Below are positions 8,328 through 58,070 of a stretch of DNA of 64,000 nt, piece after piece; position 1 is the first letter of the stretch, and the number at the start of each line of letters is the position of its first letter. The notes under the pieces are model-generated. The model was not told the DNA's origin. It did no database searches and worked only from the letters and a program-made list of their open reading frames with translations. Source of the DNA: an uncultured Bacteroidota bacterium (GTDB lineage Bacteria; Bacteroidota; Bacteroidia; Chitinophagales; LD1); assembly GCA_903889265.1 (NCBI GenBank), contig CAISWS010000119.1, positions 4,615 to 68,614 on the forward strand. Direction: 5' to 3'. A program made the translations under genes and the position numbers.

Positions 8328-11300
8328 TTATGTTAATGGCGGCTTTTCATCCCCGCCTTTTTCCTTAACCTGTTGGTCGTTTTCATGTGCCTGGGCTATT
8401 TCATATTCCAGTTCAGGGTCAATATTCTGCTCCTCAACCTTTTTTGCCTTTTCCAGCAACTCTTCATGGTGTTCACGCAAATAAGTCAGTTGTTTTTCAC
8501 CGTACGAAAAACGGGTAAACAACACAAATAAAACGGGCACAATAAATATCGAAATAGTAGACGATGCTATCATGCCGCCCAATACGGTAAAACCAATTGT
8601 TTTACGCGCAACAGCTCCCGCACCTGAAGCCAGTACCAGCGGCATCACTCCTAAAATAAACGCAATAGAAGTCATCAGTATGGGCCGTAATCTGAGCCTT
8701 ACTGCGTCAAGTGTTGACTCGATTAGCTCCTCACCCCTGTCAACACGAATCTTCGCAAACTCCACAATCAAAATTGCGTTTTTAGCTGAGAGGCCAATCA
8801 GGGTTATCAGCCCTATCTGGGCATATACATTGTTAGTAATAGGCGGAGGAAGACAAACAAGCGTTAGTATAGCTCCAAATGCGCTGATAGGCACCGCCAG
8901 CATAACTGAGAAAGGAACCGACCAGCTTTCGTAAAGCGCCGCCAGGAAAAGAAATACAAATACAATCGAAAACAGGAAAATATAAACCGTGGTAGCCCCG
9001 GCCCTTATCTCTTCATAACTCAGTCCTGAAAATTCGTAGGTATACCCTGGCGGCAAAGCCTTATCTGCAAGTTCGCGCAATGCAACTATACTCTGGCCTG
9101 TACTAAAACCCGCCGGTGTGGACCCATCAACTTCAGCCGACCTGAAAATATTAAAATGCTGTATCAAAGGAGCAGTTTCTATAGGCTTATAACTGATAAG
9201 CGTGCTCAATGGCACCATCTCCCCCATTTTATTACGCACGTAATATTTATTCATGTCAGAAACCATTGCCCTAAAAACCGTATCTGCTTGTACCACTACA
9301 TGGTAGGTTCGGTTATATAGGGTAATGTCATTTACATATAAGCTGCCCATGTATGCCTGCATAGTGGTAAATACATCCGTTACATTAACACCAAGCTTCT
9401 GGCATTTCTCTCTGTCAACCGTAAGACTGTAACTAGGTGTATGTGCCGAATACAAACTAAACGCGGTGGCTATGGCAGGTACCTTATGTGCATCAGCTAC
9501 AAACTTTTTCACTACCTGCTCAAAAGCATGAACATCATCGCTTGTATTGCCTTGCTCAATTTGCATGCTAAACCCCTGCGACTGGCCAATACCCCTGATT
9601 GGGGGAGGCGGGTTCACCTGCACTATTGCGTTTTTAATACCAGCTGCGGATATCCGTTTTTTTACAACATCAATTATACCTGGCAACCTTTCCGCAGGCT
9701 CCTTTCGTTCGGCCCACGGTTTTAACATACAAAATATCGTGCCGTTGTTCGAATTGGTACCACCACTCAATACATTAAAACCTGATAATGCTGCAAAATG
9801 ATTAACACCGGGCGTGCTCCCTATAATACCCATCATTTTCGTCATTACCTGCACAGATTGTGTAGTAGCCGAGCCTTCAGGCAGCTGATAGGTTATAATT
9901 AAACGGCCTTCGTCTTCAAATGGTATAAAACCGGTTGGCTCATATTTAAACAATAAGTAAGTAGCCGCACATATGACAATCAGGAAAACCACCACCAGCT
10001 TGCTCCACTTAATACAGCGCTTCACACCGTTTGAATACGAAATGGTAAGGCTTGTAAATTTCTTATCAAACCAAAAGAAAAATGCATCTAACCCTTTTGA
10101 GTTTTCGTTAATCCTGGTAGGCCTTAAAAGCAGTGAACACAAAGCCGGCGTTAACGATAAAGCAATAAAAGATGACAGCATTACCGAAATGGCAATGGTA
10201 ATAGCAAACTGTTGATATAAACGGCCAACAATACCCGGTATAAAACCCACCGGCACAAACACCGCTGCTAATATCAGCGCTATTGCCACCACCGGTGCCG
10301 AAATCTCCTTCATGGCATGATAAGTTGCCTCCTTTGGCGACATACCGTTTTCATCAATATAATGCTGTACGGCCTCCACTACAATAATGGCATCATCCAC
10401 TACAATACCAATGGCCAGTACAAAACCAAACATAGTAAGGGTATTTATAGTAAAGCCTAACGGTATAAAGAAAATGAAAGTGCCCAGAATGGAAACCGGT
10501 ATGGCCAGTATGGGTATAATGGTTGAACGCATGTTCTGTAGAAACAGGAACACTACCAGAGCCACCAAACCCAGTGCCATTAGCAGGGTTTCTACAACCT
10601 CCTGCATCGAAACTTTAATAATGGTAATATTCTCAAATGGTATTTTGTAAGCAATATCAGCAGGGAATGTTTTTTTAAGTTCCTCCAGTTTTGCAATAAC
10701 CGCATTGGATGTTTGCAGGGCATTACTTCCCGGCGCCTGGTAAACCATCAAAAACGAGGAGCGGTTACCATCTACAAAAGAGTTGCTTGCAAAAGTAAAT
10801 TTGCCTAACTCAACCCGGCCAACATCTTTCAGGTAAACCAACTCTCCGGTTGCGGGTATGGTTTTTACAATTACCTTTTCAAATTGCTCGCGTTTATTTA
10901 GCCGGCCGTTTACCAAAATACCCAGCTCAAACGGCTGCGTTATTTTTTGCGGCGGTTCACCCACCGAACCGGCCGCCACCTGCACATTTTGCGCATTCAG
11001 GGCACTTATAACATCTGAGGGGTTCAGTCCATATGCAGCCATCTTGCTTGGGTCAAGCCATACCCGCATGCTGAAATTATCACCACGTGCAGTTATGTCG
11101 CCAACGCCCGGCACACGCAAAAGGGCATCTTCAATAAATATGTTGGTGTAATTATCCAGGAACGTAATACCATGGGTACCTTTGGGAGAATAAATGGCAA
11201 CCATCATCAGCATACTGGGGTTACGCGCCCTTACAGTAAGCCCCAGTTTACTTACTACCGATGGCAGTAACGGCTGTGCAATACCTACACGGTTTTGAAC

Positions 11301-55806: not shown

Positions 55807-55968
55807 GAAAACAGCTGGAAAGGGGTGGGGGGTGTTTCCACTTTTTTTATTACACCATTGGTTATCAATACCCGACATTCTTAAGACCCCTTTCCATGGA
55901 AACCACCCCCTTTCATTTTTAAGGCTCTTTAACTCGTCACCGTTTATAACGAGGATTTAGTGACTTAC

Positions 55969-56006
55969 GCATTTCATTTTAATACGTACGGATTAAAATG
56001 AAATGC
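55969..56006. repeat. perfect 13-bp stem hairpin
   Basis: GCATTTCATTTTA (55969-55981) / TAAAATGAAATGC (55994-56006), 12-nt loop. Confidence 0.6.
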
Positions 56007-56035
56007 GGGCATAATAAATGGCAAACCCCATTCTA

Positions 56036-56057
56036 GAGACGCGATGCTTCGCGTCTC
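56036..56057. repeat. family-D hairpin GAGACGCGA-TGCT-TCGCGTCTC
   Basis: 9-bp perfect stem. The exact reverse complement occurs at 56140-56161. Confidence 0.7.
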
Positions 56058-56139
56058 CTATGCCGGATGGGCCAAGGCATATTTGTTCACCACATTTTGG
56101 GTATGTGCTTATAAACAGGATTTCGCCCACACGCAACAA

Positions 56140-56161
56140 GAGACGCGAAGCATCGCGTCTC
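56140..56161. repeat. family-D hairpin GAGACGCGA-AGCA-TCGCGTCTC (inverted copy)
   Basis: Reverse complement of 56036-56057. Together they bound a 126-bp segment. Confidence 0.7.
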
Positions 56162-56298
56162 TACGGCCAAATCACAGAATGTTGTGGTTTACGCGTTTTA
56201 TTACGTATTACAACGAACTGAAATTACAAATACTAATGCCGCCGTTATTACAATATTCTGAAAATTTACAAAGTGTATTAAAACCAAGCAATAAGGTT

Positions 56299-56370
56299 TT
56301 CCCCTACTACTTTTTTGCTCCGAAAAAAGGAGAGGGGGAAATGTCGACAGACAAAGGGGGTGAGGCAACC
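56299..56370 (+). repeat. family-A hairpin repeat
   Basis: TTCCCCTACTACTTTTTTGCTCCGAAAAAAGGAGAGGGGGAAATGTCGACAGACAAAGGGGGTGAGGCAACC, colinear with 29963-30030. Confidence 0.7.
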
Positions 56371-56431
56371 CTTAGGCTATGATTTAGCCGGTTATTGGGT
56401 AAAGGTGGATTATAGGGAGTGGTGAGGAATG
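56367..56431 (+). repeat. about 65-bp direct repeat, left copy
   Basis: CAACCCTTAGGCTATGATTTAGCCGGTTATTGGGTAAAGGTGGATTATAGGGAGTGGTGAGGAATG is closely similar to 57413-57480. Confidence 0.7.
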
Positions 56432-56473
56432 AACGGTCACAAGGCGCAAAAACATAACAGGCTGTTTTGTATT

Positions 56474-56562
56474 AAGCCCTGAAAGGGCGACAAGACAATA
56501 GCACCGGGTGCAGCCCGGTGTGCAAACACACAGCCGGGTTAACAGCCCTGTAAGGGCGTAAG
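56474..56562 (+). repeat. REP-like three-hairpin unit (family C), copy 1
   Basis: AGCCCTGAAAGGGCG..GCACCGGGTGCAGCCCGGTG..CAGCCCTGTAAGGGCGTAAG. Hairpins GCCCT-GAA-AGGGC, CACCGGG-TGCAG-CCCGGTG and GCCCT-GTA-AGGGC. Abuts the 3' end of the Y1 transposase gene. Confidence 0.8.
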
Positions 56563-56563
56563 A

Positions 56564-57016
56564 TTAATCCCATACATACCGCTCATCATATTCAACGCGG
56601 TATTTTTTCAGGAACGCACGGTATTCATCCTGGAATGTTTTTTTGGCGTGATGTTCTTTTTGGTTGGAGATATATTTTACAACCGTTTCAACTTCGGTGG
56701 GATTTACCGAGAATGCGCCATATCCATCCTGCCAATAAAAATCTTTAAAACCTTCACCTTTAAGCTTCATCCATTTAGATGAATGGGACTTTAGTTCCTC
56801 TAAAAGTTTTATAAGCGCAATCTTTTTTGATAACAGGCAAAGGATGTGAACGTGATCTTTATGGCCACCAATTTGGATTGGAAAGCAATCCAGTTTATTA
56901 CAAATACCGCCCAGGTAAGCATGTAAATCATCTGCCACCTTATCCGTTATAAGCGGCATCCGGTTTTTTGTGCTGAACACAATGTGCATGTAATTTTGAA
57001 CGAGCGATTGCGACAT
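56564..57016 (-). CDS. IS200/IS605-family Y1 (HUH) transposase, REP-associated tyrosine transposase (RAYT)-like
   Basis: 150 aa. NYMHIVFSTKNR N-terminus, HUH motif HKDHVHIL, and a catalytic Tyr region WQDGYGAFSV. Size and layout match TnpA_IS200/RAYT. Confidence 0.85.
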   Translation of the reverse strand: MSQSLVQNYMHIVFSTKNRMPLITDKVADDLHAYLGGICNKLDCFPIQIGGHKDHVHILCLLSKKIALIKLLEELKSHSSKWMKLKGEGFKDFYWQDGYGAFSVNPTEVETVVKYISNQKEHHAKKTFQDEYRAFLKKYRVEYDERYVWD

Positions 57017-57018
57017 AT

Positions 57019-57106
57019 TCTTACGCCCTTTCAGGGCTTTATGTTTTCGTTATTCACCTACACCGGGCTGCACCCGGTGCTATTGTCTTATCGCCCTTTC
57101 AGGGCT
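57019..57106 (-). repeat. REP-like three-hairpin unit (family C), copy 2 (inverted)
   Basis: CTTACGCCCTTTCAGGGC...CACCGGGCTGCACCCGGTGCTATTGTCTTATCGCCCTTTCAGGGCT. Its reverse complement aligns with copy 1. Confidence 0.8.
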
Positions 57107-57285
57107 GAATACATCGGGCTTATAGTTAACGGCGGTGATATGTATGTGAAATTATAAAAAATGGATAATGATTAATTGGGTATTTAAAGATTCACGCGAA
57201 TATCTCATCGCACCCTACAACCTGAATCCATTATAACCCTAAACTTCTCTGCGCTACCCCTCCGATAACACCAACCCCTGTATCA

Positions 57286-57371
57286 AGCCCTGAAAGGGCG
57301 ACCAGATAACAGCACCGGGTGCAGCCCGGTGTAAACAAACGGCCGGATTAACAGCCCTGTAAGGGCGTAAG
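57286..57371 (+). repeat. REP-like three-hairpin unit (family C), copy 3
   Basis: AGCCCTGAAAGGGCGACCAGATAACAGCACCGGGTGCAGCCCGGTGTAAACAAACGGCCGGATTAACAGCCCTGTAAGGGCGTAAG, in the same orientation as copy 1. Confidence 0.8.
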
Positions 57372-57412
57372 AATAACCAACCTGCTACAGCAACAAGCCC
57401 CAACACAACACC

Positions 57413-57480
57413 AACCCTTAGGCTATGATTTAGCAGATTATTTGGTAAAGGTGGATAATAGGGAGTGGTGGGGAAGGATG
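57413..57480 (+). repeat. about 65-bp direct repeat, right copy
   Basis: CAACCCTTAGGCTATGATTTAGCAGATTATTTGGTAAAGGTGGATAATAGGGAGTGGTGGGGAAGGATG. Confidence 0.7.
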
Positions 57481-57536: not shown

Positions 57537-58070
57537 ATGGACTTAGATAGTTTTGAAGGGAGACAAGATTTCTTTCTGCTTAAATTACATGTGGACCGGT
57601 TAAACAGAATTGCGGGTAAATCGGCATTTAGCCAGTTCGAATTTCAGCTACATCTTGATTTGATGTCGACAGGCGAACCGCCCATTGATGCAGAAGTCTT
57701 TTTAGTTAATCTCCTTGACAAAGGTTACATAGACCATAATTTAAGTTACAACCAGAACGATGCACCATATGTATTGACCAAAGAAGGTTCTGAATTTGTA
57801 AATAGCAATGGTTTTACCGAGAAGGAAAGGAGGAGATTAGTTGAACTGCAGAAAGACGAAAAAGTAAAACATGAACTAAAAGATATTACCAGAAAAAACA
57901 AGTGGTTTTATCCCCTACTCCTTTTTGCCATAATAAGCGCAACCGGGAATGTAGTTACGATTTACAAATACTTAACGCCCCCTGAAAAATCATTGGTATC
58001 CCAGCCAATGCTATTGCAAAAGCCACAGATTAAAGATGCCGTTCCTGCCAAAGCAACTAATCGGAAATAA
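57537..58070 (+). CDS. hypothetical protein, possible wHTH-like N-domain with C-terminal TM anchor
   Basis: 177 aa. LVNLLDKGYIDHN...YVLTKEGSEFV resembles a winged-helix recognition segment. Charged coiled segment, then TM WFYPLLLFAIISATGNVVTIY. No family recognised. Confidence 0.4.
   Translation: MDLDSFEGRQDFFLLKLHVDRLNRIAGKSAFSQFEFQLHLDLMSTGEPPIDAEVFLVNLLDKGYIDHNLSYNQNDAPYVLTKEGSEFVNSNGFTEKERRRLVELQKDEKVKHELKDITRKNKWFYPLLLFAIISATGNVVTIYKYLTPPEKSLVSQPMLLQKPQIKDAVPAKATNRK

Follow-up and report, generated by a model that had tools for sequence, protein, structure and literature searches.

The locus is best read, with a probability of about 0.65, as a stable, vertically inherited, single-copy cassette of REPtron-like type, in which a gene for a putative Y1/HUH single-stranded DNA endonuclease of subclass 1.2 lies between mirror-oriented copies of what would be its cognate repeat. 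It was found in a window of 64,000 nt, by which we mean the whole stretch of DNA that was analysed. The reading draws on the anatomy of the locus, the conservation and covariation of the repeat, the gene-unit association, synteny and a polymorphism in tandem copies, all of which were observed directly.

The gene (56564-57016, minus strand) encodes 150 amino acids. Its product matched PF01797 Y1_Tnp with an E-value of 3.6e-25 and passed the NCBIfam IS200 equivalog cut-off. The HUH motif that the first-pass annotation had recognised in this ORF was confirmed as H55-V56-H57, aligned to H64-I65-H66 of ISHp608 TnpA, and neither histidine varies in a set of 22 sequences that are 45-90% identical. 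The tyrosine region had been placed in the stretch DGYGAFSV, wrongly: this belongs to the conserved WQ motif (W95-Q96), and alignment to ISHp608 TnpA puts the catalytic residue at Y115 (in VVKYISNQ / VKYISNQKEHH), opposite Y127. Q119, four residues after Y115, is aligned to Q131 of the same enzyme. In the 22-sequence set Q119 is invariant and Y115 is kept in at least 90% of the sequences. An AF2 model of the protein (pLDDT 83.4, pTM 0.80) retrieved IS200/IS605 TnpA structures at all Foldseek ranks from 1 to 29 (IS608, ISDra2, Sulfolobus; E ~3e-8), with the E. coli RAYT 4ER8 at rank 30. When the enzyme-family profile was searched against the PDB, only IS200/IS605 TnpA structures were returned, and 4ER8 was not retrieved even at E<=10.

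We assign the protein to subclass 1.2 of TnpA-Y1 because its motifs DHVH, WQ and YISNQKEHH are the signature of Quentin et al. (PMC6006769, Table 1). That signature is given as DH[IV]H, WQ and Y---Q--HH (YIKNQKEHH), together with a length of about 148 aa and a subclass-specific C-terminal domain; members have a low copy number and do not act as insertion sequences, and intragenomic copies are about 36% identical (PMC6006769). The present family resembles the subclass of Quentin, Siguier, Chandler & Fichant (2018) in signature, length, C-terminal tail, low copy number and presence in Bacteroidetes. Its own C-terminal tail, FQDEYRAFLKKY.VEYDERYVWD, is nearly invariant. The Y motif of the RAYT clade (class 2; Nunvar 2010; groups 2-3 of Bertels 2017), YIxxNP, is not matched by the YISNQ of the 150-aa protein. 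As judged from its sequence, the protein is a member of an IS200-like sister group outside the RAYT clade, and the RAYT-like identity first proposed for it had to be given up in view of the subclass 1.2 motifs and the failure of the profile search to find 4ER8. Protein identity within the family is 70-80% across Bacteroidota orders, and its range includes Verrucomicrobiota, Planctomycetota and Acidobacteriota.

Three copies of a three-hairpin unit accompany the gene. Unit L, directly 3' of it (56468-56567, plus strand), scored 82.2 bits with the covariance model R1 and comprises hp1 (GCCCT-GAA-AGGGC, 56476-56488), hp2 (CACCGGG-TGCAG-CCCGGTG, 56502-56520) and hp3 (GCCCT-GTA-AGGGC, 56545-56557). 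Unit R, directly 5' of the gene and inverted with respect to unit L (57016-57113, minus strand, 88.3 bits), carries hp3 at 57025-57037, hp2 at 57061-57079 and hp1 at 57093-57105. The third unit (57279-57376, plus strand, 83.1 bits) follows 165 nt beyond unit R, after an AT-rich spacer read from the sequence (57114-57278), and is present in the sister lineage L004 too. All three matches have E-values of ~1e-19. R1 matches opposite strands at the two flanks, with 88 bits for the 5' one and 82 bits for the 3' one, which shows that they are inverted; the model is strand-specific, with 88.3 bits on the minus strand of unit R versus 14 bits on the plus strand. Units L and R are 96% complementary over 54 nt. 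The inverted three-hairpin units at both ends of the ORF and the third copy, all described in the first-pass annotation, were thereby recovered, with a length of about 97 nt each.

Within this length a near-invariant 5-bp hairpin module (AAGCCCTGAAAGGGCG.AATA) occurs twice, around a variable hairpin of 7-9 bp. The motif AGCCCTG[A/T]AAGGGCG was found six times versus 0.12 expected by chance, and CACCGGGTGCAGCCCGGTG three times versus 0.01. When the units were folded as single-stranded DNA, the three hairpins were the minimum-energy or centroid fold, with z-scores of −3.4 to −5.8. The stretch 57010-57380 folds into one long hairpin of −91.8 kcal/mol (z −12), and unit R and the third unit form a REPIN-like inverted doublet. 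The Rfam match to MIR7533, at 57057-57335, was rejected, as it reflects the long inverted repeat only.

The inner hairpins end close to the coding sequence, 5 nt from the stop codon in unit L and 7 nt from the ATG in unit R. On the gene strand, unit L reads as hp2 followed by CTATTGTCTT and scores terminator-like; it probably doubles as the terminator of the gene. The spacer 57114-57278 is presumed to be the promoter region. A sigma-70 promoter scan of this spacer, of a type that does not cover Bacteroidota promoters, gave results no better than shuffles. The upstream unit R sits in the 5' leader of the gene.

Conservation of the unit was assessed in an alignment of 29 units from at least eight phylum-level groups, in which 99.2% of the cells were paired. 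Covariation is strong in hp2: double changes were seen in six of its seven pairs, a number that was reached by none of 500 shuffles and was lost when the partners were slid. Phnomibacter, Roseimicrobium and an acidobacterium have compensatory changes in hp1 and hp3. These two hairpins look more invariant than they are, because the units used to train R1 were partly ascertained by a fixed hp1/hp3 pattern. Ahead of hp2 only A-[GA]-C is conserved (ATAGC, CCAGC, CCAAC), and a search of the alignment for a GT[AG]G foot found no GTAG at hp1 or hp3. The three-hairpin units are a real, conserved and covarying family, which is structured and under selection. The small hairpins are near-invariant across phyla and the middle hairpin is free to vary, which suggests a modular recognition code.

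The association of unit and gene was examined at 80 metagenome loci that were ascertained via the protein, not the repeat, with the units tallied by hand. At least one unit was present at every one of them (80/80). A (+) unit stood just before the ATG in 68 and a (-) unit just after the stop codon in 64, both being present in about 57. The gene with inverted units was also found in named genomes, namely those of Aquiflexum, Spirosoma, Phnomibacter and Roseimicrobium, a Pirellulales MAG and Acidobacteria MAGs, and at some loci additional solo units and arrays gather around the gene. The layout of gene plus inverted units is a property of the family, with loci from four phyla.

A genome scan for the units returned at least 120 stretches, and the gene was on only 8-9 among the matches listed. 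Many of the dispersed stretches are tight inverted doublets, and the geometry of the (+)(-) doublets is exactly that of the cassette minus the gene; tandem arrays occur as well, and copies lie in either orientation with respect to neighbouring genes. In one Lentisphaeria MAG there are six copies of the unit with identities of 95% or more. Elsewhere, in other genomes and phyla, the unit type is scattered in large numbers, and among the matches listed most copies have no such gene beside them. It had been noted at first that the window held no further copies, and indeed none was found in the 64 kb outside the locus, the next-best unfiltered R1 match scoring 17 bits. Nor were dispersed units found in ~140 kb around Bacteroidota orthologues (20-kb flanks). 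In the window and in the contigs of close relatives, units occur at the gene only, and the REP population that defines RAYT systems was not seen there. The dispersed population about which the first-pass annotation had asked is thus missing from these contigs but abundant in other genomes and phyla. As possible vehicles, plasmids and phages were unsupportive: a tblastn search of plasmids yielded no more than two megaplasmids, both from Bacteroidota, and the unit pattern was present in only two viral contigs. As a candidate for the cognate enzyme, a RAYT-like ORF of class 2 on a Thermoguttaceae contig (L033) was set aside; it lies 1.1 kb from a doublet and has no Pfam match.

The layout is that of the RAYT/REP 'REPtron', not that of IS200/IS605 ends. 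Like the REPtron of the E. coli TnpA-REP/RAYT (Nunvar 2010, Ton-Hoang 2012, Messing 2012, PDB 4ER8), the cassette has a single-copy Y1/HUH gene between inverted hairpin repeats, extra repeats beside the gene, inverted doublets dispersed in other genomes, and a gene that behaves as a resident, with synteny and neighbour-like divergence. It differs in that the enzyme is of class 1 (IS200-like) and not class 2, and in that three short hairpins, none with a GTAG foot, make up the ~97-nt repeat. Moreover, conservation of its small hairpins extends across phyla, while a REP is usually confined to one species, and the source lineage is without a visible dispersed population in the window and the contigs of its relatives. 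In having two inverted units a few to tens of nucleotides apart that can form one long hairpin, multi-copy in some genomes, the doublets resemble REPINs (Bertels & Rainey 2011) and the MITE/PATE derivatives of IS200/IS605; REPINs, however, belong with group 2/3 RAYTs of Proteobacteria and have a single GTAG-footed hairpin per arm. Of the cognate RAYT/REP pair suggested at the outset, the Y1 gene bracketed by an inverted structured repeat was retained, and the RAYT was not, as the enzyme falls outside that clade.

Subclass 1.2 has been described as being without REPs and without IS-type end structures (PMC6006769), whereas here inverted three-hairpin units flank the genes in most of the 80 protein-anchored loci, in four phyla. 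The 'no REP' statement conflicts with the cassette reading; the inspection behind it was made manually by experts, comprised only 101 sequences and looked for canonical GTAG-footed REPs. If the gene-unit association holds, the published entry for subclass 1.2 changes. It has been asked whether REPtrons and IS200/IS605 have a common ancestor (PMC8266576), and the field has been looking for an intermediate of just this sort, an enzyme of the IS200 clade in what is already a REPtron arrangement.

The most probable alternative, although we consider it unlikely, is an autonomous IS200-group insertion sequence of the ordinary kind, with inverted-repeat ends of ~100 bp. The gene-less doublets would then be deletion derivatives of MITE/PATE type, the copy in the window would be one insertion and the 67-nt repeat that surrounds it incidental. 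The enzyme itself speaks for this, its closest relatives by sequence and fold being IS200/IS605 transposases (IS200, IS608, ISDra2) with the same catalytic residues, as does the IS200 equivalog match. So does the (+)(-) doublet, whose geometry is that of a cassette without its gene. These elements also have the compact build of the cassette, with hairpins hard against both gene ends. The contexts of the cassette are unrelated between genera and include a type I restriction-modification operon in Spirosoma, and the high protein identity across Bacteroidota orders suggests horizontal spread. In IS200/IS605 elements, however, one strand carries both hairpins, in contrast to the mirror-image ends found here. 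Those elements are also multi-copy and near-identical, whereas the gene studied here is syntenic and, in the sequences covered, single-copy: one copy is present in the window, and the exact proteins of the complete Spirosoma, Phnomibacter and Roseimicrobium genomes were found at one place each. A 90%-identical orthologue occupies the same place, between a class II RNR and an SDR gene, in a lineage ~12% apart; its DNA is 87.7% identical, a value that falls between those of its neighbours (89% and 80%). The build-up of solo units and arrays around the gene is REPtron-like, and the low copy number and divergent intragenomic copies reported for subclass 1.2 (PMC6006769) likewise argue against an ordinary insertion sequence.

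In the REPtron-like cassette that we favour, the 150-aa protein would bind and cleave the units and drive their spread, by analogy with characterised enzymes. A dimer may target hairpins that fold in single-stranded DNA, such as the lagging-strand template, as do IS608 TnpA and E. coli TnpA-REP. Cutting and rejoining nearby would proceed via a 5'-phosphotyrosine on Y115, with the metal held by H55, H57 and Q119. In active lineages, gene-less units, mostly as tight inverted doublets, would spread in this way through intergenic DNA. The source lineage, with only three units, all at the gene, would be quiescent, and in the source genome the locus appears ordinary.

The three-hairpin unit is probably the same entity as the Rfam family Acido-Lenti-1 (RF01687), extended by a third hairpin. 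The units of the window scored 25.9-26.7 bits with the Rfam model, below its gathering score of 37, and homologous units at 10 other loci scored 39-46 bits, above it. Those above the threshold are from Blastocatellia, Lentisphaeria, Thermoguttaceae, Desulfobacteraceae and Saprospiraceae. The architecture is the same on the opposite strand, with a hairpin of 7-8 bp, a linker of ~12 nt (GCUAnnnUnU) and a 5-bp hairpin with a UUC loop; the Rfam model differs in that it spans two of the three hairpins. Acido-Lenti-1 (Weinberg et al. 2010) is filed in Rfam as an sRNA of unknown function from two phyla, without a link to a Y1 enzyme, and a 2026 preprint still writes, of its function, that 'little is known'. 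Our literature search, which covered few subscription journals and not ISfinder, found no paper connecting subclass 1.2 with Acido-Lenti-1, and Lentisphaera, Koribacter, Solibacter, Aquiflexum and Spirosoma are unmentioned in the supplements of PMC6006769. We lean, if only slightly, towards the view that Acido-Lenti-1 is not an sRNA but the cognate REP/REPIN-type DNA repeat of IS200-like subclass-1.2 Y1 enzymes. Next to the REP-RAYT pairing there would then be another, independent one of similar type, found in Bacteroidota, Acidobacteriota, Verrucomicrobiota, Planctomycetota and Lentisphaerota at the least, and its place in the phylogeny would be intermediate between true IS200 transposons and the domesticated RAYTs. 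A concrete and testable identity would thus be offered for an element that genome annotations have included since 2010. Entries of these hairpins as sRNA genes are to be avoided.

The Rfam classification itself favours the other possibility, that the units act as RNA, either as an sRNA or as a UTR element that controls translation in the 5' leader and terminates or stabilises the transcript at its 3' end, the link with the enzyme being regulatory. The upstream unit ends only 7 nt ahead of the ATG, and the downstream hp2 with its T-rich tail has a terminator-like score on the gene's strand. There is also a precedent in IS200, where a stem-loop in the leader blocks translation. We regard this explanation as improbable. 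The flanks are reverse complements, so that a transcript would bear two different RNAs at its ends, and R1 is strongly strand-specific, yet both orientations are equally conserved. Tight inverted doublets and tandem arrays in either orientation relative to their neighbours do not fit an RNA element, and the spread of several near-identical copies through one genome is how mobile DNA behaves.

The direct repeat of ~65 bp that had been thought to bound the whole block is present, but not as an element end. Copy 1, on the 3' side of the gene (56366-56432, plus strand), and copy 2 (57412-57478, plus strand), which lies 59 nt upstream of a 177-aa ORF (57537-58070), are 67 nt long, 91% identical and 1046 nt apart. 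The sister lineage L004 has copy 2 only (9540-9600), copy 1 being absent at the equivalent position, and assembly L002 has two tandem copies of the 1046-bp block, with a repeat between them that combines copy 1 and copy 2 as a hybrid. Because of the single copy in L004 and the hybrid in L002, the repeat is not the boundary of a mobile unit; it is a local duplicate of the region upstream of the 177-aa gene. A target-site duplication was rejected as well: the repeat is too long, only 91% identical and single-copy in the sister lineage, and Y1 elements generate no such duplication. Flanking direct repeats recur elsewhere, with 69 nt (91% identical, 911 nt apart) in L006 and at least 114 nt (2060 nt apart) in L145. 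It is highly improbable that the 1046-bp block is a small circle integrated by recombination at a 67-nt attachment sequence with the repeats as attL/attR, since no integrase is present, the repeat sequences differ between lineages, L004 has the cassette with one repeat copy and unequal homologous exchange simply explains the L002 hybrid, even though repeats of similar size recur in L006 and L145, L104 has a tandem array and a 1037-bp Logan contig covers very nearly one period. By unequal crossing-over at the 67-nt repeat the 1046-bp block can multiply in tandem, and copy 1 was one partner in the exchange that produced the L002 duplication. The tandem copies of L104, whose array has a period of 873, and those of L002 are of local origin.

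The enzyme gene (56564-57016, minus strand) encodes a 150-aa protein that matched the Pfam Y1_Tnp family with E 3.6e-25 and scored 66 bits against the NCBIfam IS200 model (cut-off 55). Alignment with ISHp608 TnpA placed H55 and H57 on the HUH histidines, which bears out the HUH motif of the first-pass annotation, and paired Y115 with the catalytic Y127 and Q119 with Q131. The tyrosine region formerly read in DGYGAFSV was therefore wrongly assigned; these residues represent the conserved WQ-G-Y-G motif. The DHVH, WQ and YISNQKEHH motifs, the 150-aa length and the conserved tail match the signature of TnpA-Y1 subclass 1.2 (PMC6006769, Table 1), a subclass that the same survey places as sister of the true IS200 transposases and outside the RAYT class. 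In the PDB, the family profile matched IS608, ISDra2 and Sulfolobus TnpA (E 6e-11 to 4e-5) and did not recover the E. coli RAYT with the threshold relaxed to E<=10. For the AlphaFold model (pLDDT 83, pTM 0.80), 29 IS200/IS605 TnpA chains were the first fold matches and the E. coli RAYT structure, 4ER8, ranked 30th. Both structure-based results agree with placement on the IS200 side and not in the RAYT class, to which the gene had originally been assigned. The protein family comprises 597 clusters at 50% identity (E<=1e-30), and the window locus is one ordinary member of this very large family. In P0122, P0130 and about 20 other proteins of ~290 aa, a single chain contains two complete subclass-1.2 Y1 domains, a number that Pfam confirms; these proteins may be fused 'single-chain dimers'.

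The gene is bracketed by two three-hairpin units of ~97 nt, at 56468-56567 (+) on its 3' side and at 57016-57113 (-) on its 5' side, which are 96% complementary over 54 nt; a third copy lies at 57279-57376 (+). Each unit consists of GCCCT-GAA-AGGGC, CACCGGG-TGCAG-CCCGGTG (the middle hairpin, hp2) and GCCCT-G(A/T)A-AGGGC, the small outer hairpins being hp1 and hp3, and re-reading of the region confirmed the layout of ORF, units, hairpins and direct repeat as first described. The window contains 6 copies of the small hairpin and 3 of the middle hairpin, where chance would give 0.12 and 0.01, respectively. The ssDNA folds predicted for the units are the three hairpins (z -3.4 to -5.8), and the 5' and third units are predicted to be able to fold jointly into a single long hairpin (-91.8 kcal/mol, z -12). 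On the gene's strand, hp2 of the downstream unit is followed by CTATTGTCTT and scores terminator-like, so that a secondary role of this unit in transcript termination is plausible.

In the flanks of orthologues the three-hairpin plan is kept, with the small hairpins unchanged and hp2 varying by compensatory substitutions (CACCGGG/CCCGGTG, CACAGGG/CCCTGTG, CGCAGGG/CCCTGCG and GGAATGGG/CCCATTCC). Across 29 aligned units, 99.2% of the cells were paired and both-sided changes occurred in 6/7 hp2 pairs, values reached by 0/500 shuffles; sliding the partners by 1-3 columns lowered the pairing to 19-60%. The covariance model built from this alignment, R1, run with filters off over the whole window, found the three units alone at 82-88 bits, with the next match at 17 bits, in keeping with the initial remark that no further copies were seen there. 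The model was strand-specific (88 versus 14 bits). In a repeat-independent sample of 80 metagenome loci (211 kb), picked via the protein alone at 69-90% identity, R1 detected 297 units. By hand tally of the R1 table, at least one unit was present at all 80 loci; at 68 a (+) unit ended no more than ~120 nt from the ATG, at 64 a (-) unit began no more than ~125 nt from the stop, and about 57 had both. Many of the loci had unit arrays. Family members of 45-52% identity from named Verrucomicrobia, Pirellulales and Acidobacteria also have the (+) gene (-) layout, with more covariation (for example GCTGTCT-GAA-AGACAGC and CCGGCCC-AAC-GGGCCGG). This layout contradicts the entry 'REP: no' for subclass 1.2 in the published survey (PMC6006769), the search target of which was GTAG-footed REPs, whereas the three-hairpin units are not GTAG-footed. 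Adjoining one subclass-1.2 gene (L151 2120-2500), hp2 alone (GGAATGGGCATCGCCCGTTCC) is amplified in a 27-nt tandem array.

The gene is single-copy in the window. The exact protein was found on a few metagenome contigs, with unchanged neighbours, and a 90% identical protein (P0002) occupies the same site in many peat-metagenome contigs, between a class II ribonucleotide reductase and a short-chain dehydrogenase. At the DNA level the two lineages are 89% identical in the reductase gene, 87.7% in the stretch containing the cassette (the gene with its flanking units) and 80% on the dehydrogenase side; the cassette thus diverged like its surroundings. At longer evolutionary distances the context differs, with adjoining HTH and sigma/FecR genes in Aquiflexum, a type I restriction-modification operon in Spirosoma and an adjoining NifU in Phnomibacter, and the exact proteins of these genera were each found at one location in their own complete genome. 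In Spirosoma sp. KCTC 42546 (CP041360.1; L022 9600-10700) the cassette lies between HsdS/AAA_13 genes and HsdM, and its upstream and downstream units differ in the middle hairpin. Two sister-lineage variants (L004 and L006) diverge upstream of the cassette at position 9903, one with PDZ and a 117-aa gene, the other with 125/115/177-aa genes, the repeat and the third unit; the breakpoint coincides exactly with the outer end of the upstream unit (TG[C/T]ATTAAGCCCTG).

Two copies of a 67-nt direct repeat, at 56366-56432 and 57412-57478, bound the block (91% identical, spacing 1046 nt). In the sister lineage L004, which shares the cassette and the third unit, the 67-nt sequence is present once, on the 177-aa gene side. 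In contig L002 the whole block is present twice, with a spacing of 1046 nt, and the middle repeat is a hybrid of the two copies, as would be expected from unequal crossing-over inside the repeat; a Logan contig of 1037 bp corresponds to about one block period. The single copy in L004 and the hybrid in L002 rule out the repeat as an element terminus or target duplication, and the meaning first given to it falls with them; it is a local duplicate through which the block varies in copy number. In L006 the cassette lies between the copies of a 69-nt repeat of different sequence (91% identity, spacing 911 nt), and in L145 between those of a repeat of 114 nt or more (spacing 2060 nt). In a Dysgonamonadaceae MAG (JAQVZQ010000007.1; L104 3500-5540) the whole cassette of unit, gene and unit is in tandem, with two genes and a period of 873/834; tandem duplications of the L002 and L104 type could be the origin of the two-domain ~290-aa proteins. 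A palindromic AT-rich sequence (TATTTCATTTTAATAC...GCATTAAAAATGCG; 55968-56007 in the window) recurs as 43-69-nt direct repeats, which flank the cassette in L006 (9800-9868, 10711-10779) and a 1126-bp insertion with 146-aa and 58-aa ORFs in L004 (10737-10779, 11863-11905); the intergenic region around these repeats is a hot spot of segmental gain and loss. Two perfect 22-nt palindromes, GAGACGCGA(T/A)GC(T/A)TCGCGTCTC, 104 nt apart inside a 51-nt inverted repeat (56034-56163), form a hairpin family distinct from the three-hairpin units; they have no further copies in the window and are kept in L004 (10796-10931).

Each window unit gave a sub-threshold match to the Rfam motif Acido-Lenti-1 on hp2 and hp1 (26-27 bits versus 37), and the architectures are identical. 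The supplement of PMC2864571 describes this motif from Acidobacteria and Lentisphaerae, with group II introns nearby in some cases; a literature search returned nothing linking it to a Y1 enzyme. A scan for the hp1...hp3 pattern in one genome per species yielded at least 120 stretches, with Bacteroidota, Acidobacteriota, Planctomycetota, Lentisphaeria, Desulfobacterota, Ignavibacteria, Verrucomicrobia and others listed. Among the matches listed, units from ten loci passed the Acido-Lenti-1 gathering score (39-46 bits), several genomes had matches on several contigs each, and a subclass-1.2 gene was present in just 8-9 of 120 stretches, which were 8-kb slices, so that a few such genes may fall just beyond them. 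R1 found 230 units in the first 100 of these stretches, about one third of which contained tight inverted doublets, (+)(-) or (-)(+), few to tens of nt apart. One Lentisphaeria MAG contains six unit copies that share at least 95% identity over ~115 nt, which indicates recent proliferation. R1 found no unit elsewhere in the 64-kb window, and none was present away from the locus in about 140 kb around orthologues from five Bacteroidota lineages; some other Bacteroidota MAGs have units on several contigs among the matches listed. The local evidence suggests that the locus is quiescent in this lineage.

In the best-supported reading of the locus, a class-1 Y1 enzyme and a composite hairpin repeat form a REPtron-like partnership. 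Of the RAYT/REP pair proposed at first, the geometry of a gene between inverted units stands; the family, the catalytic residue and the meaning of the direct repeat do not. IS608 TnpA and E. coli TnpA-REP act on folded single-stranded DNA, and by analogy the enzyme would act on the folded single-stranded units. The main rival is an ordinary IS with MITE-like derivatives. The enzyme's relatives and the gene-less (+)(-) doublets speak for it; the single-copy gene, the synteny and the inverted ends argue against it. A pure RNA role of the units fits poorly with mirror-image flanks and with inverted doublets and arrays, and a circle integrated at the 67-nt repeat is unlikely given the single repeat copy of L004 and the L002 hybrid. 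As a REPtron-like partnership, the locus reveals a REP-like system on the IS200 side of the Y1 tree and points to a probable identity of the orphan motif Acido-Lenti-1; what it exposed is worth follow-up, though the locus itself is ordinary.

Further arrangements of the units were seen in individual MAGs. In the Blastocatellia MAG CAWDRU01 (L068 2120-2390, L084 3790-4040 and L043) inverted doublets are enclosed by a further inverted repeat, TTAACGTGAATTCGACATAA, together making a ~300-bp palindromic MITE-like element whose arms differ in the middle hairpin. Near-identical solo units in the Lentisphaeria MAG JAPXLT01 (L087, L054, L094, L101 and L085) lie between short-repeat arrays that are mutually reverse-complementary, with GGACACGGAC upstream and TGTCCAT downstream. 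A unit in an Acidobacteriota MAG (L047 3768-5183) is directly upstream of a putative CRISPR array, in which the translated peptides FQSTPPRGRR and VSIHASAREAT are repeated in several frames. Finally, a Thermoguttaceae MAG contains, at a distance of 1.1 kb from an inverted unit doublet, a 245-aa ORF (L033 2422-3159) that has the class-2 RAYT-like motifs NHLHLI, WQEGSH and YIHDNPV but no Pfam match.
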